From: Candidatus Bathyarchaeota archaeon
Lineage (GTDB): Archaea > Thermoproteota > Bathyarchaeia > Bathyarchaeales > Bathycorpusculaceae
Direction: 5' to 3'
Assembly (NCBI GenBank): GCA_963702095.1
Contig: OY969706.1
Span: forward strand, 1,056,001-1,120,000
DNA length: 64,000 nt
Positions 10,541-58,518 of this stretch are shown piece by piece (position 1 is the first letter of the stretch; each line of letters opens with the position of its first letter). The notes beneath the pieces are model-generated. The model was not told the origin of the DNA. It worked only from the letters and a program-made list of their open reading frames with translations, and did no database searches. Both the position numbers and the translations under genes were made by a program.

Positions 10541-10555
10541 TGGCGGGTCCGACGG
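10541..10555. repeat. Attachment-site core, a copy of the tRNA-Lys 3' end
   Basis: TGGCGGGTCCGACGG is identical to 58504-58518 and lies 45 bp from the integrase stop. Confidence 0.85.
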
Positions 10556-10600
10556 TTGTAGACCACATACACACGAAAGAATACTAGATTTTTGGGGTAT

Positions 10601-12094
10601 TTAGGTAGCCTCCTTACGGATAATCTGCTTAAGATTCTCTGCAAGAATCGATAGCTGATGATTCTGCGTCTGGTCCTGTGTTTCTGTGTGGTTGCCTCGG
10701 ATTAATGCATCTTTGGATAGGATTTCTTCTGGGTTTCCGCCCCATGCGCGTATGATCTCTTTGAGCTGGTCAATTCTGTTAGCTTGGGTCTTAGGTCTAA
10801 TCGCTAAGCCGGCTGTCTGGTAGAGGTTTCTTAGGGTTTCTATGCCTAAGCTCTGGACGTCTTCGTAAGTGTTGATTGTGTGTCCCATCATGTACTCGAT
10901 GATTTCGGTGTCGATTTTTGCTGTGCTGAGTTGGCTTCGGAAGAATTTTCTCAAGCTGTGAGTTCTAACGGTGTACATCCAACTGTTGGGTAGTTTTTTA
11001 GAGACGTTAGTGCTGACTGCTAAAGTATGTACGATGTGTCTGATGGCTTTCTCGCTGACGCCTAACACTCGGTTTGTGACTTGTTGGTTTCGGATGAGTG
11101 GGGCATCGTCTGTTAGGGTTTCTGGTGGCATTGATCTGCCGCCTCTTTGTCGGTCTTGAAGGTACAGTTTTAGCAGTTGGCATGCTTCTGCGTTTATGAA
11201 GGTGTCGTAGTCGTGGTATTTTCCTTTGGTTATGGCGGCTTCAACGTGGATGTGGATGGGTACGCGGCCTGCTTCATAGTCTTCTTTTATGTGTCGGTAT
11301 TTGAGTTTGGCAAAGGTTCCTTCACGGAATGCGCCTGAGGTTATAGCTGCGATGATGAATGCTTCTCGTACTGCGGCTTTGTCTAGCATCAATGCGATTT
11401 CTTCTGGTTTTGGCGCTCGGTCTTTGTATGTTACTTTGCGGCTTAGCGGTTCGTCGAGTTCAACTTTTTTTACTCCGTTAACTCGGTAGAAAGTTTTTAT
11501 GGATTTTATGTGGTTGCTGACTGCGCCTGAGCTGAGGTCTTGGTCTTGGAGGTGGGCTAAGTAGTCGCTTAAGAATTCGCAGTGGCTTTGCACTTTTATT
11601 GGGTCTGGGATTGCGCCGACGGGTTTGACGTCTTGGATGATTATATCGGGGTTATGGCCTAACCATTCTGCGTATTTCTTGGTTTTAGTCGTGTAAATAA
11701 TGCAGCTGGAGTGCGAGGCTGAGCAGTGTCTTAAGAAGTGTCGTGCGATTTTTAGCATGCTCTGGTACTCAAAGATGTATGGAATTATGCTTGACTGGTT
11801 TCTTAGGCATGAGCGTATGATGTAGTCTACGAGTCCTTTTTCTTGGGCAGCTAAGATTTTGCTGAGTTGGATGGTTATAGGCTGTCGGAGTTTCCAGCCG
11901 TCTATGCTTCGCTCGATGGTGACGGTGTCGCCTTGGATTATCAGCGGTAGGTTGAGGCTTTTTAGTTCTTCAACGGAGAGGTTGCGGTTGCGGGTTATAG
12001 CGGAGGCTAAAGATGCTGTGCGTTGTAGCAATCTAGTTTTCTCCTTTGGAGCTTTTTGCTCTTCGAGTTTTTCGCTCCGATGGTCGGAACGCAT
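10601..12094 (-). CDS. Tyrosine recombinase/integrase
   Basis: FREGT (R), TKGK (K), HSLRKFF (HxxR), MMGH...Y catalytic residues. Confidence 0.93.
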   Translation of the reverse strand: MRSDHRSEKLEEQKAPKEKTRLLQRTASLASAITRNRNLSVEELKSLNLPLIIQGDTVTIERSIDGWKLRQPITIQLSKILAAQEKGLVDYIIRSCLRNQSSIIPYIFEYQSMLKIARHFLRHCSASHSSCIIYTTKTKKYAEWLGHNPDIIIQDVKPVGAIPDPIKVQSHCEFLSDYLAHLQDQDLSSGAVSNHIKSIKTFYRVNGVKKVELDEPLSRKVTYKDRAPKPEEIALMLDKAAVREAFIIAAITSGAFREGTFAKLKYRHIKEDYEAGRVPIHIHVEAAITKGKYHDYDTFINAEACQLLKLYLQDRQRGGRSMPPETLTDDAPLIRNQQVTNRVLGVSEKAIRHIVHTLAVSTNVSKKLPNSWMYTVRTHSLRKFFRSQLSTAKIDTEIIEYMMGHTINTYEDVQSLGIETLRNLYQTAGLAIRPKTQANRIDQLKEIIRAWGGNPEEILSKDALIRGNHTETQDQTQNHQLSILAENLKQIIRKEAT

Positions 12095-12542
12095 ACTCAG
12101 ACTCTTGTATAGACTGATTGCTTTTTAAATTCAATTCATGATTTTCTGGTAGACGCTGCAAACCAACCTTAAGCCGTTGCAAGTCCAAAATGTCGCTTTT
12201 CAGAAGCACTAAACCTGAAGCTTTTGGGTCGCCGCCATGAAGCGTAGGCGGTCCAGCGTCTCTATCCCACGACAAAATGAGGTATAACTCGCAATCGTAG
12301 ACTAACCAGCCGACGGCTTCTCTTTTCTGCGGTTTCATCGCAACAGCCAAGTTTCGGTTGTAGAGGACATGGTCTAAATAGCGGACAAAAATCAGCTGCT
12401 GAGATGGGTTTGGGGGGCTGGTGCCTGAATCCCGTTTTAGAGATGACTTATGGTTTGTGCCTCCAATGCTGCCTGGGGGTTGTGTCGCGTTTGGTGTAAG
12501 TTCAGCCATTCCCTCCCACCCAGCAAGCCTATGATTTGACAA
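12033..12542 (-). CDS. Hypothetical provirus protein
   Basis: 169-aa ORF overlapping both neighbours; small beta-barrel-like core similar in style to 36481..36903. Confidence 0.55.
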   Translation of the reverse strand: MSNHRLAGWEGMAELTPNATQPPGSIGGTNHKSSLKRDSGTSPPNPSQQLIFVRYLDHVLYNRNLAVAMKPQKREAVGWLVYDCELYLILSWDRDAGPPTLHGGDPKASGLVLLKSDILDLQRLKVGLQRLPENHELNLKSNQSIQESEYAFRPSERKTRRAKSSKGEN

Positions 12543-12873
12543 AGTCTAAATCCGATATTCCAAGCGTATCGCACAGATTCTTGAATGCCTGCAAAGCTTC
12601 CACTTGCTTTTTTTGGTCAGAAATCGATAGAATTCTGTTTTTGAGTAGTTCAAGCTCAGCCTTCAGGTCCAACTCTTCGATAAGCTGTAGTCTTTGTTCA
12701 TGGTCGTTTAGTACAAAGTTGATTTTGTTTAGGATGGCGCCGATGTCTGCGATGATTTCCTGAACCGATACTTTTTTGGGTTTTACCAAGCCCTTTTCAC
12801 CTTGACCAACTCTCAGGCTCATCATAAAAAGTATCTGCCCCCGCAAAGTGCTCATCACTTTGAAGGGTACCAC
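12529..12873 (-). CDS. Coiled-coil hypothetical protein
   Basis: Heptad Leu pattern; co-directional with neighbours. Confidence 0.55.
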   Translation of the reverse strand: MVPFKVMSTLRGQILFMMSLRVGQGEKGLVKPKKVSVQEIIADIGAILNKINFVLNDHEQRLQLIEELDLKAELELLKNRILSISDQKKQVEALQAFKNLCDTLGISDLDFVKS

Positions 12874-13381
12874 AAAGTGACGTATCTTTTACAGATATAT
12901 TGAGAGCACGTCAACCATGATTTCTAAGTCAGTTTCTTTTGCGACTTGGATAAATTCGTTTAGGTTTGTCTTGCTAAGGGTAAGGGCAGCTTCTGCTTTG
13001 ATGCTTAATGTGTAAAGTGGTGATAAAAAGTGGGCTTTTGCTGGTCGCACTCCATACTTTATTATCCAGCCCTGCTCACACAAGGCCTTCATGCGCCTAT
13101 CGACACTTTGCCGTTTGACGTGCCTAAAACCCTTAATATGCCTAATTTTCAAGTACATATCATAACTTGTCAGCGGGTTCTTTGCATCAAGAACTAGGAG
13201 TATAACACGGTTAAGTTTGGCTTCTCGGCCACTGAAGACATCAAGTTCTGTGCTCCTGTTTCTCTTCCGCGTCACAGATGTTTACCCTCCAGACGGCTTT
13301 GGAGGGCAAGAAAGCATGGAGTTTAGTTCTTACCATGCCCTGCTGTTGTTTTGGGCAGGCAGACGCTCGCTTCTCCTTTCA
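12874..13381. repeat. Imperfect direct repeat unit A1 (wHTH gene plus leader)
   Basis: Aligns by eye with 16256-16738, e.g. caaagtgacgtat and gtcacagatgt...ccagacgg. Confidence 0.8.
12889..13275 (-). CDS. wHTH protein (paralog of 16271..16654)
   Basis: VFSGREAKLN...LTSYDMYLKIR...SVDRRMKALCEQGWI. Confidence 0.75.
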   Translation of the reverse strand: MTRKRNRSTELDVFSGREAKLNRVILLVLDAKNPLTSYDMYLKIRHIKGFRHVKRQSVDRRMKALCEQGWIIKYGVRPAKAHFLSPLYTLSIKAEAALTLSKTNLNEFIQVAKETDLEIMVDVLSIYL

Positions 13382-13444: not shown

Positions 13445-14257
13445 TCAGGTGAACTCTTTCCTCTCGAACAGCAACAATCCTAAAACTGTAGTTATGACAA
13501 AGTAGAGTCCTATTATTGCTAAGCCTTCTGGAACTGTTGCACTATAGTTCGTGACTTGGAGATCCGTTTTTGCCAAAATCCCTACACTTTCATGAGGTGG
13601 ATAAGGCACCATCAATATGTTTCCGACTATTTGAGCTGCATAGTTCAGAATGAACCAGGGTTCAAGTGGAATCAGCCCTGAGATATTAACGATAAGGGTA
13701 AAAACTATCAGAAGTAGCATAGAGTTGACGAAGACGGCGTTAGTGCTGTTCTTGAAGAGTGCGCTAATTAAGAAAACGAACCCTATGACGGCTGCAAGGA
13801 AAAGCCAAGCAAAAAGTATAGACAAGCCGAATCCTGAAGGAATATTTCCATAGTAAAATCCTACGGCTAAGGTTATTGTTGTAAAGATGGCGATCATTAT
13901 AGAGGAAGCTGCAAAAGCAGACAGCCACTTGCCTATGTATACTGTTGATCTCCGGATAGGGTTTGGAATGCTGAAGTAACCTGTTTTGTTTTGGAACTCG
14001 CCTGAAATTGCATCCCCTCCAAAGAATATTCCCGAGAAAATGGCTACCATTGGTGCTAGCGTGCCCCATAGGAAGTAAATTGAGAGGTTGGTATATACCG
14101 CTACTACTGTCAAGCCTATGCTTATGCCAAGTATGATTGATAGCGTCATTAAGAACCTTCGTGAACGTAGATAGTCAAGAAATGTATACTGCATAATGAT
14201 ACTTGCTTGGTTCAAGCTGTTTGGGATTGCAGTTTTTGTTTTGCTCATGCTTGTCAC
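13445..14257 (-). CDS. ABC-2 type transporter permease
   Basis: About 6 TM helices; DAISGEFQNKTG...PIRR..IGK motif. Confidence 0.9.
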   Translation of the reverse strand: MTSMSKTKTAIPNSLNQASIIMQYTFLDYLRSRRFLMTLSIILGISIGLTVVAVYTNLSIYFLWGTLAPMVAIFSGIFFGGDAISGEFQNKTGYFSIPNPIRRSTVYIGKWLSAFAASSIMIAIFTTITLAVGFYYGNIPSGFGLSILFAWLFLAAVIGFVFLISALFKNSTNAVFVNSMLLLIVFTLIVNISGLIPLEPWFILNYAAQIVGNILMVPYPPHESVGILAKTDLQVTNYSATVPEGLAIIGLYFVITTVLGLLLFERKEFT

Positions 14258-15201
14258 TTCGTATCCTTAATTAATTTTAGATAAATTTCCTCCAATTCAG
14301 AGGATGCTGGCTTATAGCTGGTCACATCTATGTTCAGATGCACTAAATCACGTAGAAGCTGGCTTTGCGCAGCTAAGCTTCCATTGATAGCAATCTTGAG
14401 CTTTGTATCATCTATTTTTTCTGCCCTTACGACGTTGTGGAGGTTAGCAATTGTTTTAGTCACCATTTTGCTATCGATGGGGCTTTGTAATCCAACTTCT
14501 ATGACGTTATTTTCTCCAGAGAATTTGGCGGTTAGGTTGGATAGTGAGTCATAAACAATCAGTTTGCCGTGATCGATCATTGCGACTTCATCGCAGATTT
14601 CGGCAACCTCGCTTAGAATGTGACTGCTCATGAAGATCAGGCGGTCTTGTCCCTTTAGTGACTTTATGATTTCTCTTATTTCGCAGACTCCTCTGGGGTC
14701 TAATCCTACGGTTGGTTCGTCAAGAAGAATCACTGTGGGATTACTTAGAAGTACGGAAGCTAGACAGATTCTTTGTTTCATGCCTTTCGAGAATTTGCCA
14801 ACACGTTTATCTATCCATTCAGTCATTTTGACATTTGCGACGACGTCCTCTATTTTGTTCCTACGCTCATCTGTCGGCACTCCTCTGATTTTTGCTATCA
14901 TGCTGAGGGCTTCTCGGGGAGTTAATGAGGAGTAGATCTCTGGTGTTTCAATTAGGCTGCCAACAGAAGCCAAAGCTTCTTTCTTGTGAGTGTGAACATT
15001 TAAACCGTTTATCAACGCGCTCCCAGATGAGGGCTTTATTAAGTCTGTGAGCATTTTGAGAGTGGTTGTTTTTCCAGCGCCGTTAGGGCCTAAGAACCCA
15101 ACGCATTTTGCGCCTTCGATTTTTAAGTTCAGGTCGGAAACAGCAGGGAATGAATTGAATTTCTTAACGAGATTTAATGTCTCTATCGATGGTTTAGTCA
15201 A
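14254..15201 (-). CDS. ABC transporter ATP-binding protein
   Basis: GPNGAGKT, FSKGMKQR, LLDEPT, SSH. Confidence 0.95.
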   Translation of the reverse strand: MTKPSIETLNLVKKFNSFPAVSDLNLKIEGAKCVGFLGPNGAGKTTTLKMLTDLIKPSSGSALINGLNVHTHKKEALASVGSLIETPEIYSSLTPREALSMIAKIRGVPTDERRNKIEDVVANVKMTEWIDKRVGKFSKGMKQRICLASVLLSNPTVILLDEPTVGLDPRGVCEIREIIKSLKGQDRLIFMSSHILSEVAEICDEVAMIDHGKLIVYDSLSNLTAKFSGENNVIEVGLQSPIDSKMVTKTIANLHNVVRAEKIDDTKLKIAINGSLAAQSQLLRDLVHLNIDVTSYKPASSELEEIYLKLIKDTK

Positions 15202-15239
15202 AGTGACCGCCCTTTTCTCCTTTTTAGACTACAATTTAC

Positions 15240-15263
15240 TTATTTGACTACTTGGTCAAATAA
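15240..15263. promoter_or_regulatory. Putative TetR operator
   Basis: Inverted repeat TTATTTGAC-N6-GTCAAATAA between the divergent ABC and TetR genes. Confidence 0.65.
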
Positions 15264-15336
15264 AAAATAGTTCATGTCCTAATAAAACTTGCCGTCGCAT
15301 AAGCAATTCTTAAATCGTGAAGAACAGTAGTATACG

Positions 15337-15939
15337 TTGGTCTTCATGCCCAAAATGTTATTCGAATACAAAAAAGCCGCAATAGCAAAAATTGTCCAAA
15401 CAGCATTTGAAATCTTGGACACAAAAGGGCATCAAGACTTAACAATGGATGAAATCGCAAAAAGATTAGGAATTAGCAAGGGCGCACTATATTCATACTT
15501 CACAAGCAAAGAAGAAATCCTTAAAGAAATCTACAAGAGCGGACGCCAAATAGTCCAAAGAATTTTGCTTGAAGCCAGCGAATGTAATGACTTCAAACAA
15601 ACGATGGAGCTGATCTTTAAGCTTATGTCCGATAAATATGAAAAGCAAGTTCGAATCTATTTTGAGATTTTGGCTTTGGCCTTACATAATGAGGGCATAA
15701 GAAAAACGCTTAAGGAAGATTACGAGAAAGATTTTGATATGATGCACAGCTTCGTACAGCATTTAGTCGCTAAGAAGCAGATCAGAACGGATGTGAACTC
15801 AAGAACCTTGGCGCATGTCTTTCGATCACTTTGGATGGGTGCCTGTGAAAAATTGATTCTTGGGTACGATACTTCAGAAATCCATGAAAACTGGATAACA
15901 CAAACATCATTGATGATGCAAGAAATAGATAGCCCATAA
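15337..15939 (+). CDS. TetR/AcrR family regulator
   Basis: TMDEIAKRLGISKGALYSYFTSKEEI. Confidence 0.95.
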   Translation: MVFMPKMLFEYKKAAIAKIVQTAFEILDTKGHQDLTMDEIAKRLGISKGALYSYFTSKEEILKEIYKSGRQIVQRILLEASECNDFKQTMELIFKLMSDKYEKQVRIYFEILALALHNEGIRKTLKEDYEKDFDMMHSFVQHLVAKKQIRTDVNSRTLAHVFRSLWMGACEKLILGYDTSEIHENWITQTSLMMQEIDSP

Positions 15940-16029: not shown

Positions 16030-16146
16030 CCTTGGCTCAAAGCGAGTGGTTATGGGCGTCTTTTTCTTGCCTAAAGAGGCGGTGCTCCCAGAGTTTAGCG
16101 TGTAACGATTCTTGTCAGGGCAGGGTAATTAATCAACTGCGATGGC
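16030..16146. repeat. Conserved non-coding element B1
   Basis: Shares tctttttcttgcctaaagaggcggtgct, gagttt(a)agcgtgtaa and flanks with 20706-20837. Confidence 0.8.
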
Positions 16147-16255
16147 ATTAACCAGAGCGCACTCTCATTTTCAAATACTGGCAAGATATTAAAAAAAGTC
16201 AAATTCGGGTGCATCATACACCTTAAAGAAAAACATTTACCGATAAGGATACTGC

Positions 16256-16738
16256 AAAGTGACGTATTTCTTATAGACATATTGATAAGGTGTCGATAAG
16301 CATTTGCAGGTTGGTTTCTGGGGCTGTTTGAAGATAATCGTTTAGGTCTTTTTTGTTAAGGGCTAGTGCTGCTTGTGCCCTGATGTTTAATTTATAGAGC
16401 GGTGAGAGAAAATGCGCTTTTGCTGGCCTTATTCCCTCCTTCTTTAGCCAGCCTTGTTGGCAGAGTGCTTTTACTCGTCTATCGACACTTTGCCGTTTGA
16501 CATTCCTGTATCCTTTGATGGCTCTAATTTTCAAGTACATGTCATAGCTTGTTAGAAGCTTATTAGAGAGAACCAGGAAGATTATGAGGTTCAGTTTGGC
16601 CTGTCGGCCACTGAAAACCGCTAATTCTGTGCCCTTGGCTCTCTTCCTTGTCACAGATGTCTACTCCCCAGACGGATAAGGGAGCAAAAAAGCCACTGAC
16701 CTTTGGCTTACCTTTCAGAGGCACGCCTGCTCCTTTCA
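16256..16738. repeat. Imperfect direct repeat unit A2 (wHTH gene plus leader)
   Basis: Aligns with 12874-13381. Confidence 0.8.
16271..16654 (-). CDS. wHTH protein (paralog of 12889..13275)
   Basis: Shared LTSYDMYLKIR, VKRQSVDRR and RPAKAHFLSPLY. Confidence 0.75.
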   Translation of the reverse strand: MTRKRAKGTELAVFSGRQAKLNLIIFLVLSNKLLTSYDMYLKIRAIKGYRNVKRQSVDRRVKALCQQGWLKKEGIRPAKAHFLSPLYKLNIRAQAALALNKKDLNDYLQTAPETNLQMLIDTLSICL

Positions 16739-16824
16739 TGGCATAAGAAAAATGGAAGTAGTGAGCGGATTACGCTTACTTATCCACTTGTATTGTGGAC
16801 TGATTTATTCGTCATTTATTACGG

Positions 16825-18063
16825 CTATTCGTATCTTAGTGCGTCTACTGGTTTTAGTTTGGATGCTCTCCATGCGGGATACAATGCAAAGATTACGCTG
16901 ACTCCGACGCCAAATCCAAAAGCGCCCGCCAGAACAGTGGACGTTAGAACCGGCGTTATAGCTAAGCCTCCCGTCTGCGTTTGACTAAGCACCGCCAGAA
17001 TCACATTAGCCATTCCCCAACCAATCGCTATGCCCGTGATTGCGCCGATTAATCCGATAATCACTGACTCGCCCAAGAAGATGGTAAGTACCGTATGGCT
17101 CTTCATGCCCAATGCCTTTAGAATACCAATCTCACGGGTGCGCTCAATCAATGACACAATCATTATGTTCATTATTCCAATGCCCGCTACGAGCAATGAA
17201 ATCGCTGCAATTCCTCCAAGGAAAAGCGAATTGGTTTGGAACACAGAGTTCAAGGTATCTGTTACACTGCTGGGAGTAATGACAGTTACTTGGTTGTCAA
17301 AGTGGTTTTGAATAGTCTTTGAAGCCTCTGTAATCGTTGCGTTGTCGGCGCTGTTTAACCTGACAATTATGGCGTATGCTACGTCGGTGTCAAAGAAGCT
17401 CTGTGCTTTCTCAATTGGGATATAGACACCTAAATCGTTGGGTCCACCAATACCAAGGACGCCCACTGTTGGAAGCACAGCAGCCACACGCGCAACATAG
17501 GTTTCGTTCTTGAATGGGTAAGTGGTTGCGTTAACCCAGACTATGCTGACTTTGTCGCCTGCTTCAAGAAATTTTGTGCCGTTTTGGTTGGGATCACTAA
17601 CCCTTGCACCCACAATTATTGCGTTCTCGTCTCCATTGGCTGGGAAGGTTCCGCTGGCGGCAGCGAAGGTTTTGCTGTAGATGCTCTGGTACTCAGTGAA
17701 GTTTAAGCCCACTATGCCTGGTGCTAAATGTGTGACGCCGCCGTTTTGGATGTAACCTATCTGATTGATAGCAGGTGTAGCGGAAATGATTGTTGGTGAG
17801 AGCGATTTTATTTCGTCAGTATAGTTCAGGTACAGCTTAAACGATGAAGAGGCAGTTGCAGTGTTGGGCATTACTATTACTGTGTCAGCTGCAAATCCGC
17901 CCTCAAGTTGTCCTGTCAAGGTAGTTTGTAAGCCCTGCGTGATTGACATCAACGCGACTATGGCTGCTATGCCAATTACCACGCCCAAAGTGGTTAAGGC
18001 AGCACGGAATTTTCGAAGCTTTATGGCACTTAAAGAATAACCCAATACATCAAGCGGATTCAT
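16825..18063 (-). CDS. MacB/FtsX-type ABC transporter permease
   Basis: RAALTTLGVVIG; GIGIMNIMIVSLIERTREIGILKALG; YPAWRASKLKPVDALRYE. Confidence 0.95.
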   Translation of the reverse strand: MNPLDVLGYSLSAIKLRKFRAALTTLGVVIGIAAIVALMSITQGLQTTLTGQLEGGFAADTVIVMPNTATASSSFKLYLNYTDEIKSLSPTIISATPAINQIGYIQNGGVTHLAPGIVGLNFTEYQSIYSKTFAAASGTFPANGDENAIIVGARVSDPNQNGTKFLEAGDKVSIVWVNATTYPFKNETYVARVAAVLPTVGVLGIGGPNDLGVYIPIEKAQSFFDTDVAYAIIVRLNSADNATITEASKTIQNHFDNQVTVITPSSVTDTLNSVFQTNSLFLGGIAAISLLVAGIGIMNIMIVSLIERTREIGILKALGMKSHTVLTIFLGESVIIGLIGAITGIAIGWGMANVILAVLSQTQTGGLAITPVLTSTVLAGAFGFGVGVSVIFALYPAWRASKLKPVDALRYE

Positions 18064-18744: not shown

Positions 18745-18793
18745 GGATATTCGACCTTGCATGCCTAAGCCTTGGCGCATCCATCTAATAAAG

Positions 18794-18812
18794 CTATGTC
18801 AATAAGACATAG
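18794..18812. promoter_or_regulatory. Putative PadR operator
   Basis: CTATGTC-N5-GACATAG palindrome (ATGT..ACAT) between padR and the ABC operon. Confidence 0.65.
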
Positions 18813-18834
18813 TTCTTTACGACGTAGTACGCCA

Positions 18835-49509: not shown

Positions 49510-49742
49510 GCCAAAAATAATCTGCCTTTTTCCGTTATTCGAAAAGGTGCAGTTTTCTCAGCGCTCTCTTTTTCTATGTCTCCGTCTATGACAAGAAAAG
49601 CAAACATGCCCGAAAAACAGGCGTAAGAAATGTCTTTGGTGCGAAAGAGCCTCTTCTCAAGTGCTGTGCGACGCATAGGGCCATAGCTAAGAGTTTTTAG
49701 GATAGCCTCAGCCACACCCAAACGGTCAATTAATTCACCCAT
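49491..49742 (-). CDS. Small wHTH protein
   Basis: ILKTLSYGPMRRT...PFRITEKGR. Confidence 0.7.
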   Translation of the reverse strand: MGELIDRLGVAEAILKTLSYGPMRRTALEKRLFRTKDISYACFSGMFAFLVIDGDIEKESAEKTAPFRITEKGRLFLAWRKKP

Positions 49743-49808
49743 TTTTACATCAGCCCAAACTTTCTTGAAAACAAAAAAGGAGGTTGTTAAGTGAGAGGCA
49801 GTTTTGCT

Positions 49809-50789: not shown

Positions 50790-51221
50790 TTAGGCGCCTG
50801 CCTCTATGAAGATTAAATCGCCGTCTGCCTCTGCCTTGTTTACGGTAGTTCCTAATTTGCGACTCATGTAGATAGTGTAAGTTGCTGCACCGCCTTCGTT
50901 TACTTCTTGATCGTTTAGTTCAGTTACTTTTCCGTTGCCGCCGTTACGGACTGCAACCCCTGCGGCAGTGGTTGCGCCATTAGCAACCACTTTGACCCTG
51001 CCTTTTCTTAGGATGGGAACCTGCTCGCTATCCGCAGCGGCTTTAACAGCAATGCCAAAGCCATACCAAGTGGTAGGAGTAGCCGTCACTTTGCCATCAT
51101 TTGTTAATTCGACAGGTGACCCCTTTGTAACTGCGCCATTGGCTTCATAACTCTCAATGACTGCATTTGGATCGTCAGTTTCTCCAGCAGACATCCAAGG
51201 CTTACCTGTTTTATCAGCCAT
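50790..51221 (-). CDS. Head decoration/cement protein (DUF2190-like)
   Basis: Gly/Ala-rich, GIAVKAA...VPILRKG; lies between protease and MCP. Confidence 0.7.
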   Translation of the reverse strand: MADKTGKPWMSAGETDDPNAVIESYEANGAVTKGSPVELTNDGKVTATPTTWYGFGIAVKAAADSEQVPILRKGRVKVVANGATTAAGVAVRNGGNGKVTELNDQEVNEGGAATYTIYMSRKLGTTVNKAEADGDLIFIEAGA

Positions 51222-51298
51222 CCAAAATAATCTCCAAAAGTTTTAACGTTCAGCCAAGGTCGTTCTTGGCCTACTAGCCCCACAAAAGTGAGCATAAA

Positions 51299-52216
51299 CT
51301 AAGGTACACTCCCCAAGCGTTCTTTCGCCCTAAAAATCTCCGAGCGAATTCCCTGACAGATACGTTGCATGCCCAAGCTTGACCGTTGTACCATCTGAGA
51401 AGGCAACAACCGCTCAAGGATAGCGATATGCTCAGAAAGAGGAATCATAACAGGAGGGTTCGTTAGCAATCCTCCACCGGGCAACTTCTTTCGCAGTTCC
51501 TCGATGGTTTTGTTAGCAGTAGACAGCTGGTTTTTTGCCTCATCGCAGGTATTCTCAGCGGTCTTGCATTTGCTCTCTGTGTCAGATAATTTTGTGTTAG
51601 CTTCAAAAATCTGTAACTTGAGGTTCTCAATTGTTTCCGTGTTCTGTCCGTTTACTTTTGCAGCGACCTTTTCAGCGATTAAATTCAAGTCTTTCTCTGC
51701 CAATTGTACAGGATTCTTACCCGTTGCAAGATGCTCTAGTACCTGAACGTTAGTTTCAGGCACACCTGGAACGGCAACAAGCGATAACTCAGGATTGAAC
51801 AAGCCGTGCGGAACTTTGGCGTCCACTACATCAAGCGTGTTGTAGTCAGCGCCGACACTAACGTGCTGAACGAGTCCATTTCTAATTTTATCAGCGGTGG
51901 CAGCGTCATAAATCTCAGCCTCATAATTTAGACATCGAGCAGCGGCATCGTAGTTGCACTTGGTTACTTTTCCAGCAGCCGAATCAACAGCCACATGCTC
52001 GATATAGACAGGGGCATCAACCAGCTTGTCAGCAAAAGCTCGGAGTTCTTCAGGCGTATAAACGTTAAAGTTCCTAGACATTCCAGCGGCCAATGCAACT
52101 CCGCCGATTCGTAATGGCTTCTCTGCTACTGCTTCAAGGACTTTGAAGGGAAGAACCGAAGATACATGCTCCCGAACATGCTTACACTCTTTACAGCCAG
52201 AGCCACACTGAGACAT
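51299..52216 (-). CDS. Prohead protease with coiled-coil scaffold
   Basis: SRNFNVYTPEEL, PVYIEH, VSVG, ELSLVAVPG; C-terminal coiled coil. Confidence 0.85.
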   Translation of the reverse strand: MSQCGSGCKECKHVREHVSSVLPFKVLEAVAEKPLRIGGVALAAGMSRNFNVYTPEELRAFADKLVDAPVYIEHVAVDSAAGKVTKCNYDAAARCLNYEAEIYDAATADKIRNGLVQHVSVGADYNTLDVVDAKVPHGLFNPELSLVAVPGVPETNVQVLEHLATGKNPVQLAEKDLNLIAEKVAAKVNGQNTETIENLKLQIFEANTKLSDTESKCKTAENTCDEAKNQLSTANKTIEELRKKLPGGGLLTNPPVMIPLSEHIAILERLLPSQMVQRSSLGMQRICQGIRSEIFRAKERLGSVP

Positions 52217-52593
52217 ACCTAAATCGCCAAGAAAACAATTCTGCGGTTAAGCATTAATGGCTTGAGAGCCTAAACAGGATAATATCGCAAACAGGACATA
52301 CACGGCTACTTGGACATAGCACATCGTTTAGCTTTTTTAGCTCTGGGAAATCATTTCGCAACAGGATTAACTGTGAACAATTTGGTAAGTTCCTCCGCAG
52401 TTAGACTTCCTTCGATTAATTTTTGTAAAACCCTTCTCGTAATTCGCCTTGTAGAGCAGGTCATTATTGATCTCGCTGGCTTCTGTCAGGTATGAGGGAT
52501 TTTTCTTACAGTTAATGACAAGGAGAACCATTAAGGCAAAATCTAAATACACTAATTAAACAATCAAGAATACCAGTTCTGGGATAGAAAATT

Positions 52594-53734
52594 ATGAAGT
52601 CAAAAAAACAAGTGATTTACGGGATAATAGTAGCATTCATTGTTCCTACCTTACTGGTTTTTGTCTCATGGGCTATAGGAGCGGTTCATGATGTGATGTT
52701 TGTTATTGATGAAGTTATTGCCGCTACGGCAGCATCGTTGGTGTTTGCGGGACTTGTTATATGTGTTCATGGTGTGATAGGAAAAGAAGGAATTATAGAA
52801 GCAAGAGACATATTGAAACTCCCTAAAGCTAAACAAGCTAGTTGGATACAAAGACATAGAATTTTTGTTAAGAAAGATAAGAAGGCAGACTTTTGGTTAA
52901 TGATTTTTCTACTAGCGGTTTTCGGTTCTATCGCTATCCTGATTGCTACAACTTTTCCAGTAGTGCCCTCTTCAACAAACGCAGTTCTCATATCTAATGT
53001 TACTAAAGGAACCATGATTGCTTTTGGTGCAGGAATCCTGATCACTTGTATACTGCTTTCAGGGAATGAATTATACAACATATGGGATTCCAAACAAAAA
53101 ATCATTTACGAACAAAAAAAGGCTCTTTTAACCATAATTACTGACTTTGATAATTCATTTCGAGAATTAAAGCAAACTACTCAACAGAAAACGAAGGAAA
53201 GACTACTAGATGACTTTCAAAATAATCTTAGAAATCTATGTTACGATTACCCGTGGGATGAAAAAAAACGAGACAGAATAGTAGATGTATTAAACTACAT
53301 ACCGTCTAGACTCGCAAACGACCCTAACGTCGGGTCTTATCTGCTCTTTCTTGGATTTATAATTCATCGAGACAGCAAGTATACTATAAAACTAGTAAAA
53401 GAGAAGTTCTCAGTAGAATTGGAGAACTTGTATAATGACCAACGATTTGAAACTAACCCAAAACCTATACTTTTACTTCAAGAACTAAACGAGCATTCAG
53501 AAGTATATATGATGAAACTGATTGACGAGACAAGTTCAATTTCTAAATGGAGCGACCAGCGATTTCAAGCTTTAGGCAGTAACATTGAACTATGGGAACT
53601 AAAGACCAAAAACATAGAAGCCCATTCTAGAAGTTTCAGATTATATACTCAGAAAAATGGATGATGCAGCACGAAGTAATGATGATACAGTTTTCAAAAG
53701 ACTTGATTTCCTTAAAGCAGTAACAAAGAGGTAA
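52594..53734 (+). CDS. Membrane protein with 4 TM helices and a helical C-terminal domain (possible frameshift near 53625)
   Basis: Hydrophobic segments; ORF stops at 53664 but an alternative frame runs to 53734. Confidence 0.6.
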
Positions 53735-53756
53735 AGAAGAATCAGAGGTTTTATCG

Positions 53757-54257
53757 TTGCAGAAACCGTTGCACATTGAACTCATAGCTACAGATGGTGC
53801 AGTACAAAAAAGGGTACTGTGGGCACATTCCGCACCTAACGGTGTATATTGTGGTATGTGTAGCAACGGTCAAGATTTTCATGTTACTTACCATGCGGAC
53901 GGGAATGTGTTTAATAATTTTGGCGGCAAAACAACAAAGACTTTTACAGGAAAATCCTTTAAAGAGTTTACAGGGTATCAACAACTATTATGTTCTGGCG
54001 TTACCAATAACTTGTCTCATGGGTTCTATCCTTCATATACGCTAAAGAAACTAGACGCTATTGTAAACATTGATGTACGAAATTACAAAAAAGGCGCTGG
54101 TTGCATGTTGTTTATGGTAGAGCCAACTTTTACTGCACTATCAGAATTAGTTAGGCATTTTCAAACTGGGAACCAACCACATATAACGGAAGTTCACTCA
54201 TTTATGGAATGTAATCCTTGGTTAGCTATTTTTGTATATGGCGATGTTTACGGTTAG
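53757..54257 (+). CDS. Hypothetical protein
   Basis: 166-aa ORF with HVTYHADG. Confidence 0.6.
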   Translation: MQKPLHIELIATDGAVQKRVLWAHSAPNGVYCGMCSNGQDFHVTYHADGNVFNNFGGKTTKTFTGKSFKEFTGYQQLLCSGVTNNLSHGFYPSYTLKKLDAIVNIDVRNYKKGAGCMLFMVEPTFTALSELVRHFQTGNQPHITEVHSFMECNPWLAIFVYGDVYG

Positions 54258-54391
54258 ATTTACAGGGTGTCCTTCTCCTCAAAGGCATCAAATTCTTTAA
54301 TTCTAATAAAAAACGACATCGTTCGAATCGGGTAAGACAACCACCAAGGCGCAGAGAAATGTTATATTCTTAGCACTTGCAATAGAACACT

Positions 54392-55072
54392 ATGGGTAAA
54401 AAGAGTAGGCTAGACGCTTTAGATAATATTACTCTTGCATTGTTTGGCGCTTCATTGGCTATCCCAGCGTTGATAGGCTACTATGGATTAGATGTCCGAT
54501 TAATGGTAATTCCCAGTTTATGCTATGGCTTTTGGATTCTAATCATTGGCTACGCCAAACCTAAAGTGTCATTTGATGGTCAGCCTGACCGTGCGCTGGT
54601 TGAGCGTATCCGTGGCTGGGCATATGTTTTGGGCTTTCCTGTGTGTTCGGTAACGAATTTCATCTTCATCTTTGTGCTTCCGCATACACTCGACTACTTC
54701 CTTTTTGGAATCGTAACTGGAAGCGCTGCATTGTTCCTATGTGTTAGCATTGTCCAAGCAATCTTCAGAAAAGATATCGCTAACATGGACGTTGAGCAAC
54801 ACGGCTTGCTTTTAAGCATGCTGAGTTGGGTTGGAGCATCAATCATTTTCGTTTCTGTAGGGTTACCCTATCCTACGATTATGACAACCTGGACGAGTTA
54901 CCCTCTTGCGATGGTAGTAGCTTATTCGGTGACAGCTGTGATTATGTTTTGTTTCAGCTTTGACAGATATAAGAAGTCATCTAAGCTGTGTAAGCAACTT
55001 GCGGATTCAATGAGGGAAAGCAGATTGTCCAAGAAGAAGCAAAAGACGGAATCAGTCGAGAAAAACATGTGA
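54392..55072 (+). CDS. Multi-pass membrane protein
   Basis: About 6 hydrophobic helices. Confidence 0.7.
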   Translation: MGKKSRLDALDNITLALFGASLAIPALIGYYGLDVRLMVIPSLCYGFWILIIGYAKPKVSFDGQPDRALVERIRGWAYVLGFPVCSVTNFIFIFVLPHTLDYFLFGIVTGSAALFLCVSIVQAIFRKDIANMDVEQHGLLLSMLSWVGASIIFVSVGLPYPTIMTTWTSYPLAMVVAYSVTAVIMFCFSFDRYKKSSKLCKQLADSMRESRLSKKKQKTESVEKNM

Positions 55073-55130
55073 AAAAGTACACAGGATATTCACTTTGAAT
55101 AAAGGAATATCACTTTCTTCTCTTATTATT

Positions 55131-55805
55131 CTAAACCCAGTTTTGTTCTTTTTCGGGGTGCGCTAAAACCCAATTATATTTGTCGATGAATGTCGTGGCT
55201 GTTTTAGGCGCATATTTCTGCTCTAACTGCCTTAATGTCGGTTGTAGTTGTCTCATTCTCTCTTGCATCTCCACCAAGAATAAGAAGTAATCGTTTCCAT
55301 CACCATTTTTGTTAAACTTTTTCCTGATGTCTACATCCCACATAATAAAAAAATTGGGGCAGCAAAGATGTAATATTTTAGAAGCTGTTGTTGGACCCGC
55401 ACGTTTAGGTTTTCCTTTATTGCTACTAAAGCTCGTCATTGCCATATCGTTGAAAAGCTCTGTTATTTGAGTTTTGAGAGCTTTCAGATTATCAGCATTC
55501 TCTATGTTTAAGGTTCTAAAGGGCGCAAGCTTTGCACTAAATTGAGCATCTTTTAGTTTTTCATAAACTGCCTCTAATCCTGAATAACCAAGATGCCTCT
55601 GCATTACTCCCCATACTAGAAGGAAAGCAACCAAAATTCTTTCTCTATAGAGGTCGTTGAGGTCTTTCAGGTCAATTTTACTGAATTCAGCAATGCATGC
55701 TTGGTAAATTAGGTCAGTAATTCCCCATCGAGCTTCCACGTCTTCGATAACCTTAGAGAACTCTTCTTCTTTTATACTGTTATCCGCCAGCTTAGCAACC
55801 TCCAA
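55131..55805 (-). CDS. HhH DNA-glycosylase-fold protein
   Basis: FL..WG and GPTTASKILHLCCPNFFIMWD..IR motif. Confidence 0.6.
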   Translation of the reverse strand: MEVAKLADNSIKEEEFSKVIEDVEARWGITDLIYQACIAEFSKIDLKDLNDLYRERILVAFLLVWGVMQRHLGYSGLEAVYEKLKDAQFSAKLAPFRTLNIENADNLKALKTQITELFNDMAMTSFSSNKGKPKRAGPTTASKILHLCCPNFFIMWDVDIRKKFNKNGDGNDYFLFLVEMQERMRQLQPTLRQLEQKYAPKTATTFIDKYNWVLAHPEKEQNWV

Positions 55806-55808
55806 TTA

Positions 55809-56315
55809 TTATGTATGAAGCGTAAATCTGATCAACCAATCAATTACCTGAAAAATAGCAATTACCGCCAACGATGCAACCGCAACGAAAAAGGCATTTC
55901 GTAATTCTTTTTCTTCAGGGCTTTTTGAGCGCATTGCAAACAATGGCTGGATCAATGGCTGATTACCATAGATAGGAAATGGATATAGTTTATTACCTCC
56001 TTCATTGAGGACTTCTACTTGCCCGCCCTTAGTAGCCACAGCACCAACTACCGTAAACCAAGTGTAGCCTGACATAAGAGGGGCTTGGCTGTATGGAATT
56101 GTTGCTTCAGACTTTGGGGCTAAATTTTGAATGTTTAATGGCTGATACACATTTTGGTTAAGTTGACTCCACGAGAGCATAATTTGAATAAAACCATCAA
56201 ATGTTGCGGAGCCAAGATTTTTCACTTTGTAGGCATACTTAGCTGTTTTGCCGACGACTGCTTCTTTGGGTGCTTGAACAACAACCTCGAGCTTATACGT
56301 TGCGTTTGCTGTCAT
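55809..56315 (-). CDS. Ig-like (CARDB-like) protein with C-terminal TM anchor
   Basis: YKVKNLG, LAPKSE; terminal hydrophobic helix. Confidence 0.6.
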   Translation of the reverse strand: MTANATYKLEVVVQAPKEAVVGKTAKYAYKVKNLGSATFDGFIQIMLSWSQLNQNVYQPLNIQNLAPKSEATIPYSQAPLMSGYTWFTVVGAVATKGGQVEVLNEGGNKLYPFPIYGNQPLIQPLFAMRSKSPEEKELRNAFFVAVASLAVIAIFQVIDWLIRFTLHT

Positions 56316-56385
56316 ATCTGTCCCCCGGCCATTTTTTGTTGTTACCGCTAATAAGGTTTTTCAACGATTATGGGGTTTGCTTTGT

Positions 56386-56598
56386 CTATTTGGTACTTCT
56401 TGTATTCAAGTTGTTCGAAGTATTAAGAACGTCAATAAATTCTAAATCAGCCCTTGCACGCTCGATTTTCTTTAAAGCATTCCGTCTAGAACGAGTTACA
56501 TTGGGTGTTTCTACTTTCAGCTTATGTGCAATTCGATAGTCGCTTAGGCCCTCACTATGCAACCGTAGAATCTGCCGTTCACGCTCAGTCAACGCCAT
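56386..56598 (-). CDS. LuxR/Tfx-type HTH regulator
   Basis: LTERERQILRLHSEGLSDYRIAHKL...RNALKKI. Confidence 0.85.
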   Translation of the reverse strand: MALTERERQILRLHSEGLSDYRIAHKLKVETPNVTRSRRNALKKIERARADLEFIDVLNTSNNLNTRSTK

Positions 56599-56600
56599 AT

Positions 56601-57167
56601 CTAATTCGTTCCATCAGGCTCTTCGGAGTAATCATTCAGAACCACGCCTTGGGCTAGCAAGTCCTTCTCTGATGCTTTGTAGGCGTCTACGCCGAAGCTT
56701 GTCATAGCCCAGCACCAACCCCGCCGCTCAACAACCGCCGAGTCCAGCTCCTGAGATAACCGTTTATTCATGCGAATAATCCGTCGAGTCACTTGATAAC
56801 GAGCAACCTTGAACTCAGCCAATTTAGCAGCTATGTCTTTAGGCAGTAATCCGGGAGCGCCTGCTTCAAACAGCAACTGAAGAATAGCCTTGTCAACCTC
56901 GTCACAGCAAGCGGCTTCTTCAATTAGTGACTTCTCAAAATACAAAGAATCCTTTAAGCCAGCAAAGATAACCTTAAGCAAGAGTTTTATTTCGGCGACG
57001 TCACGGTCGAGTTTCTTGTCCTTGGCAAACAGGTACTTGAGTTTTCCAACTTTGTCAGCTTGGCTACGCTTCCTTTTATCTGCTTTTTGGGCTGAAAATG
57101 TCGTGTTTTGAACAGGGTCATCGCTGGCTTCCATGTCAAAAGGCACACTCCACGGTTTTCGCTCCAT
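56601..57167 (-). CDS. wHTH-containing protein
   Basis: DEVDKAILQLL...DIAAKL...VTRRI; ATGA overlap with the next gene. Confidence 0.65.
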   Translation of the reverse strand: MERKPWSVPFDMEASDDPVQNTTFSAQKADKRKRSQADKVGKLKYLFAKDKKLDRDVAEIKLLLKVIFAGLKDSLYFEKSLIEEAACCDEVDKAILQLLFEAGAPGLLPKDIAAKLAEFKVARYQVTRRIIRMNKRLSQELDSAVVERRGWCWAMTSFGVDAYKASEKDLLAQGVVLNDYSEEPDGTN

Positions 57168-57316
57168 GAACGCATGTGACTTTTAGCGTTGGGCAATCTA
57201 CTCTAAGCAACCGTAGAAAAGCAACTTCCCAAAAGCATGGACTTTTCCCATGCCCTCGCCATACCGCTAAAAGTACTTTTGAACAGGTTTTAACAGCCAA
57301 AAACCTGAAACTACCG

Positions 57317-58273
57317 CTAAGAAACATAGCTTTTACCTCCCTCTCCCCCGGTCTTTGTTACCTCTTGGGGAGCTCCTTCTAAATTTCCTACAAGCCGCCC
57401 CAAAGCATCCGCAACCTTAGCCAAGTCGCAACCCATCTTCTCCAACTTTGCAAGACTACCTGAAATCCGCTCCAAATCACCAAGAGCAGTTTCCACTTGA
57501 CCTTCCAATTTCTTAACCCGCTCAGGCATCAACAAATACTCGACGGCTGCGTCACGGCCAAGATGGTCCAGTTCTCCTTCGTCTTCGCCGGGGCTGTCAT
57601 CAATCAACCGCTTTGGAGTGCTTACCTCAAAATAGCGGTTTAACAGGTTGGCTACTGGGTCGTCGATGCCAAGTTCATGGCGGTTGTTGATTGTTCCCTG
57701 CCCTAAAACGCAGCCATACTTGCTCATTAGGCCCTGAGCGACGCGGTCAGCCAAGTTCTTAGCTAAAGTCACAAGCTCCCCGGGACTTCGACCATAGAAA
57801 GTCTCTACATGGACAATCCAAGACGTCGTCGTATGCCTCACCTTAACACCCTGCTCCAGCCCCAAAAGCGCGGTCCAATTCTGCATCTCAATCCGCCGAA
57901 AATCGCCCGAAGGATAAACCCCCTCACGTAACACTGGATACTTGAAAAAACACCGATGCAACCGAAACACGCCGCTGCTGAAGAGGACTCCCTCACAGGA
58001 TATGAGAAAGTTTTGACCTCGCTCTGTTAGCTCAAAATCGACGAAGTTGCTGCGCTTTAATCTGCGGATTAAGCCTGCCTTTTCAAGCTTTTTAACATAG
58101 TAAGCGACATGCTGGCGCTTCCATCCACGGACGCGCCCTATTTTGGCTGGGTACATTTTGACTTCTATGCCTTTGAGTATGGGTATGACACGGGCGCGAA
58201 CGGTATTGAAGTCAAATTTGACTTTTGACTTTGAAAGCGCAAAATTTTGACTTCTATCTGGTTGGGCAGTCAA
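57317..58273 (-). CDS. wHTH plus unknown domain plus coiled coil; candidate replication initiator
   Basis: HVAYYVKKLEKAGLI..ELTERG; RLH..FKY, IDDSPG..GELD; first gene inside the att site. Confidence 0.55.
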   Translation of the reverse strand: MTAQPDRSQNFALSKSKVKFDFNTVRARVIPILKGIEVKMYPAKIGRVRGWKRQHVAYYVKKLEKAGLIRRLKRSNFVDFELTERGQNFLISCEGVLFSSGVFRLHRCFFKYPVLREGVYPSGDFRRIEMQNWTALLGLEQGVKVRHTTTSWIVHVETFYGRSPGELVTLAKNLADRVAQGLMSKYGCVLGQGTINNRHELGIDDPVANLLNRYFEVSTPKRLIDDSPGEDEGELDHLGRDAAVEYLLMPERVKKLEGQVETALGDLERISGSLAKLEKMGCDLAKVADALGRLVGNLEGAPQEVTKTGGEGGKSYVS

Positions 58274-58503
58274 AAGCTTTAGCGCCTCCTGGATTCCTTA
58301 AAGTTGTCGCAGGCGTCAGAGGAAGCCACACGGCCTATTGATCGTCTGCCCCTCATGGACGGTTCAGAGCAGCGCCCGCACCAAAAAACGCAGTCCATAC
58401 AATAGTGAACTGTCGCGCTATGCGTAGAAGCAGTGTAGAGCGTACGCTGAGGGAAAAAAGAAGAGAGAAAAGAAAAAAGGCTAGTACTCTTTCGTGTAAA
58501 TGT

Positions 58504-58518
58504 TGGCGGGTCCGACGG
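58504..58518. repeat. Attachment-site core within tRNA-Lys
   Basis: Identical to 10541-10555. Confidence 0.85.

Follow-up and report, generated by a model that had tools for sequence, protein, structure and literature searches.

Bathyarchaeia are abundant, largely uncultured sediment archaea, and we know of no virus of this group that has been isolated. A circularised Bathy-6 genome is described as containing a variable region of ~99 kb with a 46,769-bp provirus that encodes a terminase, an integrase and structural genes; the provirus is siphovirus-like by Virfam, and its genes, among which foreign ones are scattered, occur widely in Bathyarchaeia (PMC11697101). Eight head-tailed proviruses of Bathyarchaeia have been reported, with a pPIWI gene in BATPV1 and the DISARM genes DrmA and DrmC in BATPV2 (PMC11705971), and the Kunpengviridae comprise integrase-bearing Caudoviricetes-type viruses of Bathyarchaeia that encode an MCM-like helicase and a family B polymerase (PMC10848311). 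Elements with tyrosine recombinases form arrays at one target in Thaumarchaeota (PMC6563490), and defence hotspots are known from the P2-like prophages and P4-like satellites of E. coli (PMC9122126, PMC13586616). Here we describe a stretch of 64,000 nucleotides from a Candidatus Bathyarchaeota archaeon (assembly GCA_963702095.1, contig OY969706.1, positions 1,056,001 to 1,120,000), referred to as the window. Positions 10541–58518 of the window very probably constitute the integrated genome of a temperate tailed virus of this archaeon, with an HK97-type capsid, a terminase and a portal. This provirus is called A and its left-hand neighbour, which includes window positions 1–10540, is called B. 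The source genome (2.94 Mb) is designated G000, other G numbers denote genomes of relatives, and L numbers denote loci.

Provirus A is delimited by a direct repeat. The 15-mer TGGCGGGTCCGACGG occurs exactly at 10541–10555 and at 58504–58518, as a first-pass annotation of the window had stated, and the right-hand copy is the 3' end of a tRNA-Lys(UUU) gene. When up to three mismatches are allowed, the window contains three matches to the 15-mer, against a mean of 0.48 in shuffled sequence, and none of 100 shuffles reached three. Over the whole genome and both strands there are ten matches with at most two mismatches, and the copies at 10541 and 58504 are the only exact ones. By arithmetic, ~2 exact 15-mer pairs are expected by chance in 64 kb; for a second copy of a given tRNA end the expectation is ~1e-4. 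An intact integrase gene is situated at the end distal to the tRNA, also as first annotated, and its stop codon lies 46 nt from the att core. The protein matches Pfam Phage_integrase above the cut-off (E 4.9e-7; 30.1 bits against 27.1) and a PHROG integrase profile (E 1.9e-8), and the catalytic residues R257, H379-x-x-R382, H405 and Y410 are kept in all four aligned sequences, those of A and three paralogues. A split integrase of the SSV type was considered and rejected, because the gene is whole. The 169-aa gene next to the integrase is also present in B, in C (an arm-only relative of A elsewhere in G000) and in G005, G012, G014 and G070. On the tRNA side, the 188-aa and 318-aa arm genes are 84–96% identical to copies in two decayed relatives within G000. 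The tRNA-Lys target adjoins, in the host flank, a gene for a CdvA-domain protein (59441–61081, + strand) with a long proline-rich, extensin-like repeat tail; the length of this repeat region differs among relatives.

The tRNA-Lys site is empty in G007, the closest relative of the host (flanks 84–92% identical), where homology to the window resumes at 58506. The empty-site comparison proposed in the first-pass annotation therefore holds for the site but not for the size of the insertion, since the DNA absent from G007 amounts to ~88 kb and not 48 kb. A host block at 1008740–1024067 of G000, 32–47 kb to the left of the window, is ~2 kb from tRNA-Lys in G007 and ~90 kb from it in G000. A third att copy, AAGCGGGTCCGACGG, which agrees with the 15-mer at 13 of 15 positions, was found at 1026593–1026607 of G000, ~40 kb to the left of the att copy in the window. 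Beside it is a second integrase, 52% identical to that of A, with the same arm layout. Because the third att copy adjoins a paralogous integrase, A is the tRNA-proximal member of a tandem array, and the left repeat at 10541–10555 is the junction between A and B and not a border between virus and host. The earlier idea of a composite of a virus and another element is correct in the form of this array. The tRNA end in G007 reads AAGCGGGTCCGACGG, identical to the outermost copy in G000, and TGG stands in the two inner copies, giving CCA on the strand of the tRNA. This indicates that the native tRNA gene does not encode the CCA. Three att copies with the native end only on the outermost one are what serial integration into the tRNA 3' end predicts.

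Element B encodes its own integrase and a set of predicted defence proteins, with PADLOC matches to DrmD (twice), DrmMI, a DruE-like helicase, PDC-S68 (E 2e-237) and a TmtA-like protein; no homologues of virion genes were found in B. Its tRNA-side arm (9870–10555, with the 180-aa gene) is 90% identical on the nucleotide level in G005, G008 and G014, where the B-type arm is situated at the far end of whatever element occupies tRNA-Lys. The arm is absent from the empty site of G007, where a bPH-domain gene, common to G014, adjoins tRNA-Lys. The interval 9883–10425 was also considered as host flank and rejected, because G007 lacks it at the empty site and elsewhere it accompanies B-type arms. The entire 88 kb from the outermost att copy to the tRNA could in principle be a single element in which the middle repeat is incidental, given that G007 lacks all 88 kb and that the native tRNA end is on the outermost copy. 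We regard this as highly improbable, because the middle copy is an exact 15-mer beside the second integrase with the same arm layout, the tRNA-side arm of B is joined to different elements in three other genomes, and B is devoid of virion genes. Inside B, a single 1976-aa open reading frame (ORF) at 1707–7637 (+ strand) encodes a UDP-glucose dehydrogenase domain, a family-2 glycosyltransferase domain and a SAM-methyltransferase domain. In G014 (39.5 kb) and G005 (30 kb), the same tRNA-Lys is the site of a related provirus, and a 3.7-kb remnant is found there in G008.

To assign the genes of A, the 60 ORFs of the window, 48 of which lie within 10601–58273, were scanned against Pfam, and subsets were also searched against PHROGs, PADLOC and NCBIfam (Table 1). 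The large terminase subunit TerL is at most 30% identical to TerL of bacterial phages, and its 150-aa neighbour would, by position only, be the small terminase. The 326-aa protein of the head module is assigned as the HK97-type major capsid protein (MCP) on its PHROG matches; its score against Pfam Phage_capsid (18.5 bits) is below the cut-off. The 419-aa ORF that follows the capsid gene is likely the portal. It gave no hidden Markov model match in Pfam or PHROGs, even at E <= 5, but it scored 0.97 against Mu/SPP1 portal clusters in a comparison of language-model features. An AlphaFold model built with 45 homologues was of low confidence (mean predicted local distance difference test score, pLDDT, 51), and all top Foldseek matches of this model in the Protein Data Bank (PDB) were portals, the best being that of HFTV1 (8qsi, E 4.3e-3, probability 0.98). 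No tail sheath was recognised in the library scans of A. Among the 48 ORFs, Pfam returned no polymerase, primase or MCM family and only helicases, which confirms the earlier annotation on this point.

Approximately 19 kb of A form a conserved backbone made up of the integrase arm, the terminase module, the tail, the head and the regulator arm. The remaining ~29 kb fall into four replaceable segments, of which the largest spans ~13.3–32.9 kb. G+C content (GC) is 0.457–0.481 in the backbone modules, 0.468 in the genome and 0.369–0.428 in the replaced segments. Three of these segments were recognised by comparison with a close relative of A on contig C12 of G007 (G007:C12), which lies beside different host genes and is colinear with 35084–58259 of the window. 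Nucleotide identity is 94.5% over the tail module and 81.5% over the head module, and unrelated DNA takes the place of 36964–39225, 45560–48311 and 52301–56437; the 37053–38937 segment is absent from G007:C12. In A, 45882–46598 (+ strand) is an inverted partial paralogue of the 451-aa gene of the tail and neck module (43915–45270, - strand), 40% identical to its N-terminal ~210 aa, and G007:C12 has no such free copy.

All backbone ORFs of A align over their full length with their homologues in G007:C12. The ratio of nonsynonymous to synonymous substitution rates (dN/dS), calculated by the Nei-Gojobori method between these genes, was 0.02–0.13 for 15 of 16 backbone genes and 0.04–0.13 in the tail module; for the portal, dS was saturated. 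This comparison shows purifying selection, and with it that the virion genes have been functional long-term within the lineage. Values of dS depend on the module (tail 0.07–0.29, head 0.5–1.1), which is typical of viral mosaicism.

A survey of 120 genomes of the genus shows how the virus family is distributed. Homologues of the MCP are present in 44 of the 120 genomes, often several per genome, and some contain internal stops or are fragmentary. Such a patchy, multi-copy occurrence is characteristic of temperate virus families that are active and not of a domesticated locus. At E <= 1e-3 the portal has 1040 protein homologues, of which the 120 listed show at least 65% identity; those with a name are labelled Bathyarchaeia or Bathyarchaeota, apart from one that carries the label of a Methanocella metagenome-assembled genome. 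A tblastn search with the MCP against 50,697 GenBank phage records gave no match at E <= 1e-3. The same query detected seven loci in IMG/VR, all fragments of 5–34 kb, one of which is colinear in the manner of G007:C12 and none of which is a complete genome; the Argonaute encoded in the cargo of A had no relative among IMG/VR viral contigs. The lineage, which the first-pass annotation called poorly sampled, has no relative among these GenBank phages by capsid protein, but it is far from rare, and similar proviruses are in print.

The unusual conservation of the portal homologues, together with TerL-like genes in 94 of the 120 genomes, might be taken to mean that A is a domesticated particle locus resembling a gene transfer agent. 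We find this hardly credible. The MCP is patchy, multi-copy, located at different sites and often decayed, A has an integrase and att sites, and its site is empty in the nearest relative. The gene transfer agent proper, an integrase-less, vertically inherited single locus, was likewise rejected, as A does not have these properties.

Several findings weigh against the account of A given here. Prohead protease, tape measure, small terminase and replication protein were not recognised by Pfam, PHROGs or NCBIfam, so that the completeness of A is judged from gene order and conservation. The full head-tail set of the first-pass annotation accordingly stands for TerL, MCP, tube, neck and tail protein, with the portal likely, and not for the protease, tape measure and small terminase; the same holds for its description of A as apparently complete, with the replication genes added to those unrecognised. 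The portal assignment depends on the low-confidence model and on a language-model search for look-alikes. G007:C12 breaks off inside TerL, which leaves the cargo side unseen, and its continuation was not identified among the contigs of G007. A is 8–13 kb longer than the two relatives that were measured (G014, 39.5 kb; G012, ~35 kb). Decay is common, as G000 itself contains decayed relatives, namely C (650–665 kb), D (~214–233 kb) and a TerL remnant at 1.21 Mb. With regard to the boundaries, the 2–2.5 kb just outside the outermost att copy are non-homologous between G000 and G007, and the related element in G005 (L027/L028, G005:C25 104.5–134.6 kb) is inverted between the same direct att copies, with its integrase adjoining the tRNA and its 188-aa arm gene at the far end. 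Finally, in three of the ten relatives whose cargo position was scanned (L075, L084 and L091), the genes seen are of transport, sugar or signalling type and may belong to the host flank.

A reading that accommodates many of these points is that A is a correctly bounded but cryptic, defective provirus, which forms no infectious particles, does not package 48 kb and persists as an island of defence and transport genes. The unrecognised genes, the length of A, the three further segments replaced relative to G007:C12, and the frequent decay in G000 and in the genus, with some MCP copies interrupted by stops or fragmentary, are all compatible with it. This reading deserves serious consideration but is the less likely one, because the att repeat is exact, the catalytic residues of the integrase are intact, and all backbone ORFs are full-length relative to G007:C12 with low dN/dS. 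Capsids of the HK97 type with T=7 accommodate ~48 kb, and lambda packages 48.5 kb, so that the length of A falls within the range of such a particle. A temperate virus that may well still be able to excise and to make particles is the reading we favour.

The public sequencing data contribute little to this question. A search of public sequencing runs revealed none that contains the stretch (best word share 0.16), and no RNA run was listed for it. In three runs, contigs over 56500–60500 represent relatives of 90–95% identity with loose ends at ~58500–58524, and a few join a related arm to tRNA-Lys; none of them bears on attP or attB of A. A crude k-mer scan of G000 detected no CRISPR-like array.

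Table 1. Features of provirus A and its surroundings (window positions unless stated otherwise; aa, amino acids).
Feature	Position	Strand	Content and matches
Element B	G000 1026593–1066555		39.9 kb, left end 29.4 kb outside the window; defence island of non-viral type that encodes a paralogous integrase
Right-hand 10.5 kb of B	1–10540		180-aa gene (9883–10425) and DNA to 10540 form the tRNA-side arm
attL core of A, attR of B	10541–10555	+	exact repeat
Tyrosine integrase	10601–12094	-	497 aa, uninterrupted
Integrase-side arm	12033–13275	-	genes of 169, 114 and 128 aa; no known family
ABC-2 transporter and TetR regulator	13445–15939		permease and ATPase; cassette inside a 430-nt direct repeat
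Second 128-aa gene copy, MacB/FtsX-type exporter, PadR regulator	16271–19419	-	exporter of ATP-binding cassette (ABC) type, permease and ATPase
PIN-domain protein and TrmB-like winged helix-turn-helix (wHTH) protein	19678–20617	-	toxin-antitoxin-like pair
Hel308/HamB-like helicase and 236-aa protein of no known function	20948–24450	-	helicase 904 aa; opens the low-GC block
Four-gene Argonaute cassette	24573–29838	+	DUF2797-domain protein (529 aa), prokaryotic Argonaute (pAgo, 842 aa), proteins of no known function (223 and 171 aa)
ResIII/DEAD helicase and TIGR04141/DUF6119-like protein	29940–32887	+	412 aa and 554 aa; the latter resembles a 'sporadically distributed' family
Terminase module	32946–36903	-	140-aa, 150-aa, TerL (482 aa) and ABC-ATPase/GNAT fusion (481 aa); borders the cargo hotspot
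TerL	34399–35847	-	Terminase_6N E 7.4e-15, above cut-off; Terminase_6C weak; phrog_2 E 1.2e-37
Replaced segment	37053–38937	+	GC 0.369; 358-aa protein of no known function and sce7726-family protein (NCBIfam E 4.3e-28)
Tail and neck module	39232–45596	-	Mu gp36-like, 451-aa, tube, 152-aa, neck1/gp10-like, 226-aa and 691-aa tail protein
Tail protein (691 aa)	39232–41307	-	phrog_400 E 3.6e-7
Neck	42115–42450	-	phrog_5 E 7.8e-14
Tail tube	43007–43867	-	Phage_tube_2 E 5e-10
Mu gp36-like	45270–45596	-	E 2.1e-5
Replaced segment	45561–48310		169-aa ORF (+), the inverted partial paralogue of the 451-aa gene, and 382-aa ORF (-)
Head module	48250–52216	-	scaffold-like (305 aa), cement/decoration (143 aa), predicted HK97-type MCP (326 aa), 83-aa gene, likely portal (419 aa)
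Portal candidate	48250–49509	-	419-aa ORF after the capsid gene
Predicted MCP	49809–50789	-	phrog_267 major head protein E 1.1e-12 and two further MCP PHROGs
Replaced segment	52302–56436		GC 0.384; five ORFs of no known function, one with a CARDB domain
tRNA-side arm of A	56601–58273	-	188-aa gene and 318-aa wHTH protein
attR core of A	58504–58518	-	last 15 nt of the tRNA, CCA included; element-supplied
tRNA-Lys(UUU)	58504–58581	-	anticodon ttt; Rfam tRNA 71.7 bits

The largest replaceable segment lies downstream of the terminase module. To compare this position between relatives, species-representative genomes were scanned with the ABC-ATPase/GNAT protein, which yielded 68 loci; 58 of these contain at least half of the ABC/GNAT gene and 38 extend at least 8 kb downstream. 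Upstream of ABC/GNAT the gene order is conserved: the 140-aa gene is present there in 41 of the 58 loci, TerL in 38 and the tail protein as well in 16. As this order recurs across loci, tail-140-150-TerL-ABC/GNAT is the standard layout of the family. On the other side of ABC/GNAT the content differs. The eight genes of 20948–32887 and the transporter genes of A have homologues in none of the 68 loci, the TrmB/PIN pair recurs in two of the 68 (in L108 directly after ABC/GNAT), and a 128-aa-like gene is present 1.3–9.4 kb downstream in seven loci, compared with 16.3 kb in A.

Downstream content was determined by Pfam scan in ten loci, and recognisable restriction or defence genes follow ABC/GNAT in six of these ten relatives. 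One locus contains a complete Dnd cluster, one a type I restriction-modification (RM) system with Mrr, one a Schlafen protein with an SMC-like ATPase, a helicase and DndB, and one a PLD protein with a methylase and a STAND NTPase. Two loci, one of them on the BATPV1 contig (L068), contain a methylase and a UvrD-PD-(D/E)XK nuclease, and L065 encodes beta-helix and InlB-repeat surface proteins. The flanking core genes are conserved and the content between loci is variable, so that the cargo position is, by this comparison of gene content, a family-wide variable hotspot with a predicted role in defence. Since relatives have different defence sets at the same position, acting as a vector of defence genes would be a property of the family architecture and not of this copy alone. 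The first-pass description of A as a temperate virus that carries defence genes is supported by the empty site, the patchy multi-copy family, the purifying selection and the other defence systems found at the same position.

The cargo of A itself, placed by the first-pass annotation at ~13.4–32.9 kb as transporter and defence genes, is supported in this identity by matches in Pfam, PADLOC and NCBIfam. The 430-nt direct repeat around the ABC-2/TetR cassette is the duplicated 128-aa gene (12863–13296 and 16245–16675). The MacB/FtsX exporter has host paralogues of 57–71% identity at 1323928–1325917 of G000. The PIN/TrmB pair is the only cargo shared with relatives, namely G005 (74–86% on the amino acid level), G070 (76–93%), L108 and L082 (99%). 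It is followed by a 12-kb block of low GC (20948–32945, GC 0.385) that contains further predicted defence genes. The pAgo matches a PADLOC profile (E 5.3e-38) and CpAgo (9jh7, E 1.1e-6), and its Pfam Piwi score (21.7 bits) is below the cut-off. When the last two tetrad positions are compared with CpAgo, the aspartate of 'HKDG' is kept and the final position is N instead of D. The helicase and the TIGR04141-like protein are a candidate two-gene defence pair. We infer that this cargo shields the lysogen from other mobile elements.

Within the genus survey, pAgo is limited to two of the 120 genomes, the host of A and G131. The chromosome of G131 holds the same four-gene cassette alone (L042/L043, G131:C3 ~634.9–640.3 kb; 81% identity for the DUF2797 protein, 65% for pAgo, and 64 and 47% for the other two), in the form of a low-GC insertion that is surrounded by host-syntenic genes and has no virus genes in its vicinity. 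The cassette thus appears, from its gene content and surroundings, to be mobile as a unit between provirus and chromosome. The first-pass annotation would be refuted by relatives that lack the virus and still carry the internal region; G131 is such a relative only in a trivial sense, as it carries four internal genes at another locus.

The low GC of the block relative to the backbone (0.46–0.48) and the isolated cassette of G131 could also mean that A is a composite, in which an independent element with its own mobility entered a smaller virus and carried in the 20948–32945 block or the whole cargo. The arrangement in L108, where TrmB-PIN follows ABC/GNAT with nothing between them, and the duplicated 128-aa gene that brackets the ABC-2/TetR cassette would fit such an event. 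An invasion of this kind is nevertheless improbable. No second recombinase or transposase was found by Pfam among the 48 ORFs, and no repeats flank the 12-kb block; around the cargo, the only repeats detected were the duplicated 128-aa gene and a 60-nt intergenic repeat. Only a sub-cassette, the four pAgo genes, is found elsewhere, and the presence of unrelated systems at the same position in relatives fits an exchange of cassettes by recombination rather than the insertion of one element. The 60-nt repeat itself is situated at two junctions between cargo modules (16038–16097 and 20714–20773, 83% identical), and it also occurs at 221592–221652 of G000 (98%), within a decayed relative. It may serve as a site of regulation or recombination.

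Three further observations concern relatives of A. C (650.4–664.6 kb of G000, L033) and D have retained the integrase, the 169/114/128-aa genes and the 188/318-aa genes, with 82–96% identity, and have no MCP, portal or tail genes; C contains a beta-helix protein, a radical-SAM protein and others. A TerL-like gene at 2735005–2736831 of G000 (L032:11005–12837), with a small gene upstream, is 66% identical to TerL of A and is located between a ribosomal-protein operon (L3, L4, L2, S19) and genes for shikimate kinase, PCNA and primase. Its orthologues are 85–93% identical; the ribosomal-protein flank is the same in G058, the flank is shared in part in G069, and it differs in G131. TerL-like genes are thus found in more genomes of the survey (94 of 120) than the capsid gene (44 of 120), and the gene at L032 may be a fixed or domesticated terminase cassette. 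In the G014 provirus, TerL is upstream of the head genes, unlike the usual layout of the family, and a 1101-aa fusion of CheB, CheR, PAS and histidine kinase (L024:12352–15654), an unusual signalling cargo, is encoded between TerL and the scaffold gene.

The array can be accounted for by two successive integrations. B, a 40-kb defence island with an integrase, would have occupied the site first, and A would then have landed in the tRNA end that B had rebuilt; that B preceded A is our inference from the att copies. The viral tyrosine integrase would have recombined attP with the last 13–15 nt of the host tRNA-Lys(UUU) gene, so that the viral copy completes the tRNA including the CCA and the displaced copy comes to lie at the far end beside the integrase gene. 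The outcome would be the 88-kb tandem array with three att copies, of which only the outermost has the native, CCA-less end. The position downstream of terminase and ABC/GNAT would serve as the cargo hotspot of the virus family, loaded in A with two ABC exporters and their regulators, the PIN-wHTH pair, the Hel308-like helicase, the Argonaute cassette and the helicase/TIGR04141-like pair. A more speculative extension, to which we give a low probability, is that the integration and regulation arms are a shared chassis and that B, C and D are satellites that ride in capsids of the A type. Bearing on this, B has the size of a viral genome (40 kb), the same tRNA-Lys att site, and a paralogous integrase and 169-aa gene, and it has no virion genes. 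If true, archaea would have an equivalent of phage satellites, and the family, given also its terminase-side hotspot, would be the main vehicle of defence-gene traffic in Bathyarchaeia.

A precisely bounded and apparently intact provirus provides primers and junctions for induction tests in enrichment cultures, since its att site is known, the empty site can serve as a control, the integrase is intact and the virion genes are under purifying selection. The comparative hotspot result may be more useful than the single copy, as it extends the idea of defence hotspots in prophages from enterobacterial phages to archaeal viruses. It also marks a position at which new archaeal immune systems may be sought; the four-gene cassette with DUF2797 and pAgo and the pair of helicase and TIGR04141-like protein are candidates.

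Compared with the systems described earlier, the ~99-kb region of Bathy-6 with its 46,769-bp provirus resembles the 88-kb array with its 48-kb provirus, a likeness drawn from the published description (PMC11697101). The BATPV1 contig shares with A the order tube-neck-tail-140-150-TerL-ABC/GNAT, with an ABC/GNAT protein that is 84% identical; unlike A, it has no homologue of pAgo or other A cargo within 10 kb downstream, where the methylase and the UvrD-nuclease are found instead. The Kunpengviridae and A are both tailed viruses of Bathyarchaeia with an integrase, and A is set apart, going by their description, in having no MCM or family B polymerase match among its 48 ORFs (PMC10848311). The predicted portal has its best structural match in the HFTV1 portal (PDB 8qsi, 8qsy), at 13–15% identity and E 4e-3 from a low-confidence model. 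The P2-like prophages and P4-like satellites resemble A in that their anti-virus systems differ between relatives at a position enclosed by conserved core genes (PMC9122126, PMC13586616). The P2 and P4 systems are described from bacterial myoviruses that are unrelated in sequence, whereas the hotspot of A follows terminase and ABC/GNAT, is archaeal, and has a predicted anti-virus role. The Thaumarchaeota arrays, as reported, likewise show tandem integration at the same site, short att repeats, tRNA targets and cryptic elements with RM genes; here, in contrast, one tRNA-Lys is occupied jointly by a virus and by a defence island of non-viral type, and their integrases are paralogous (PMC6563490). 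As a single provirus A is ordinary for Bathyarchaeia, with a near-twin in print. Relative to the description of Bathy-6, the present account adds the att site, the tRNA target, the tandem structure, the cargo inventory and the hotspot (PMC11697101), and beyond the known proviruses in general it adds the assignment of att to tRNA-Lys, the arrangement of A and a defence island in a tandem array, the estimates of selection and the hotspot.

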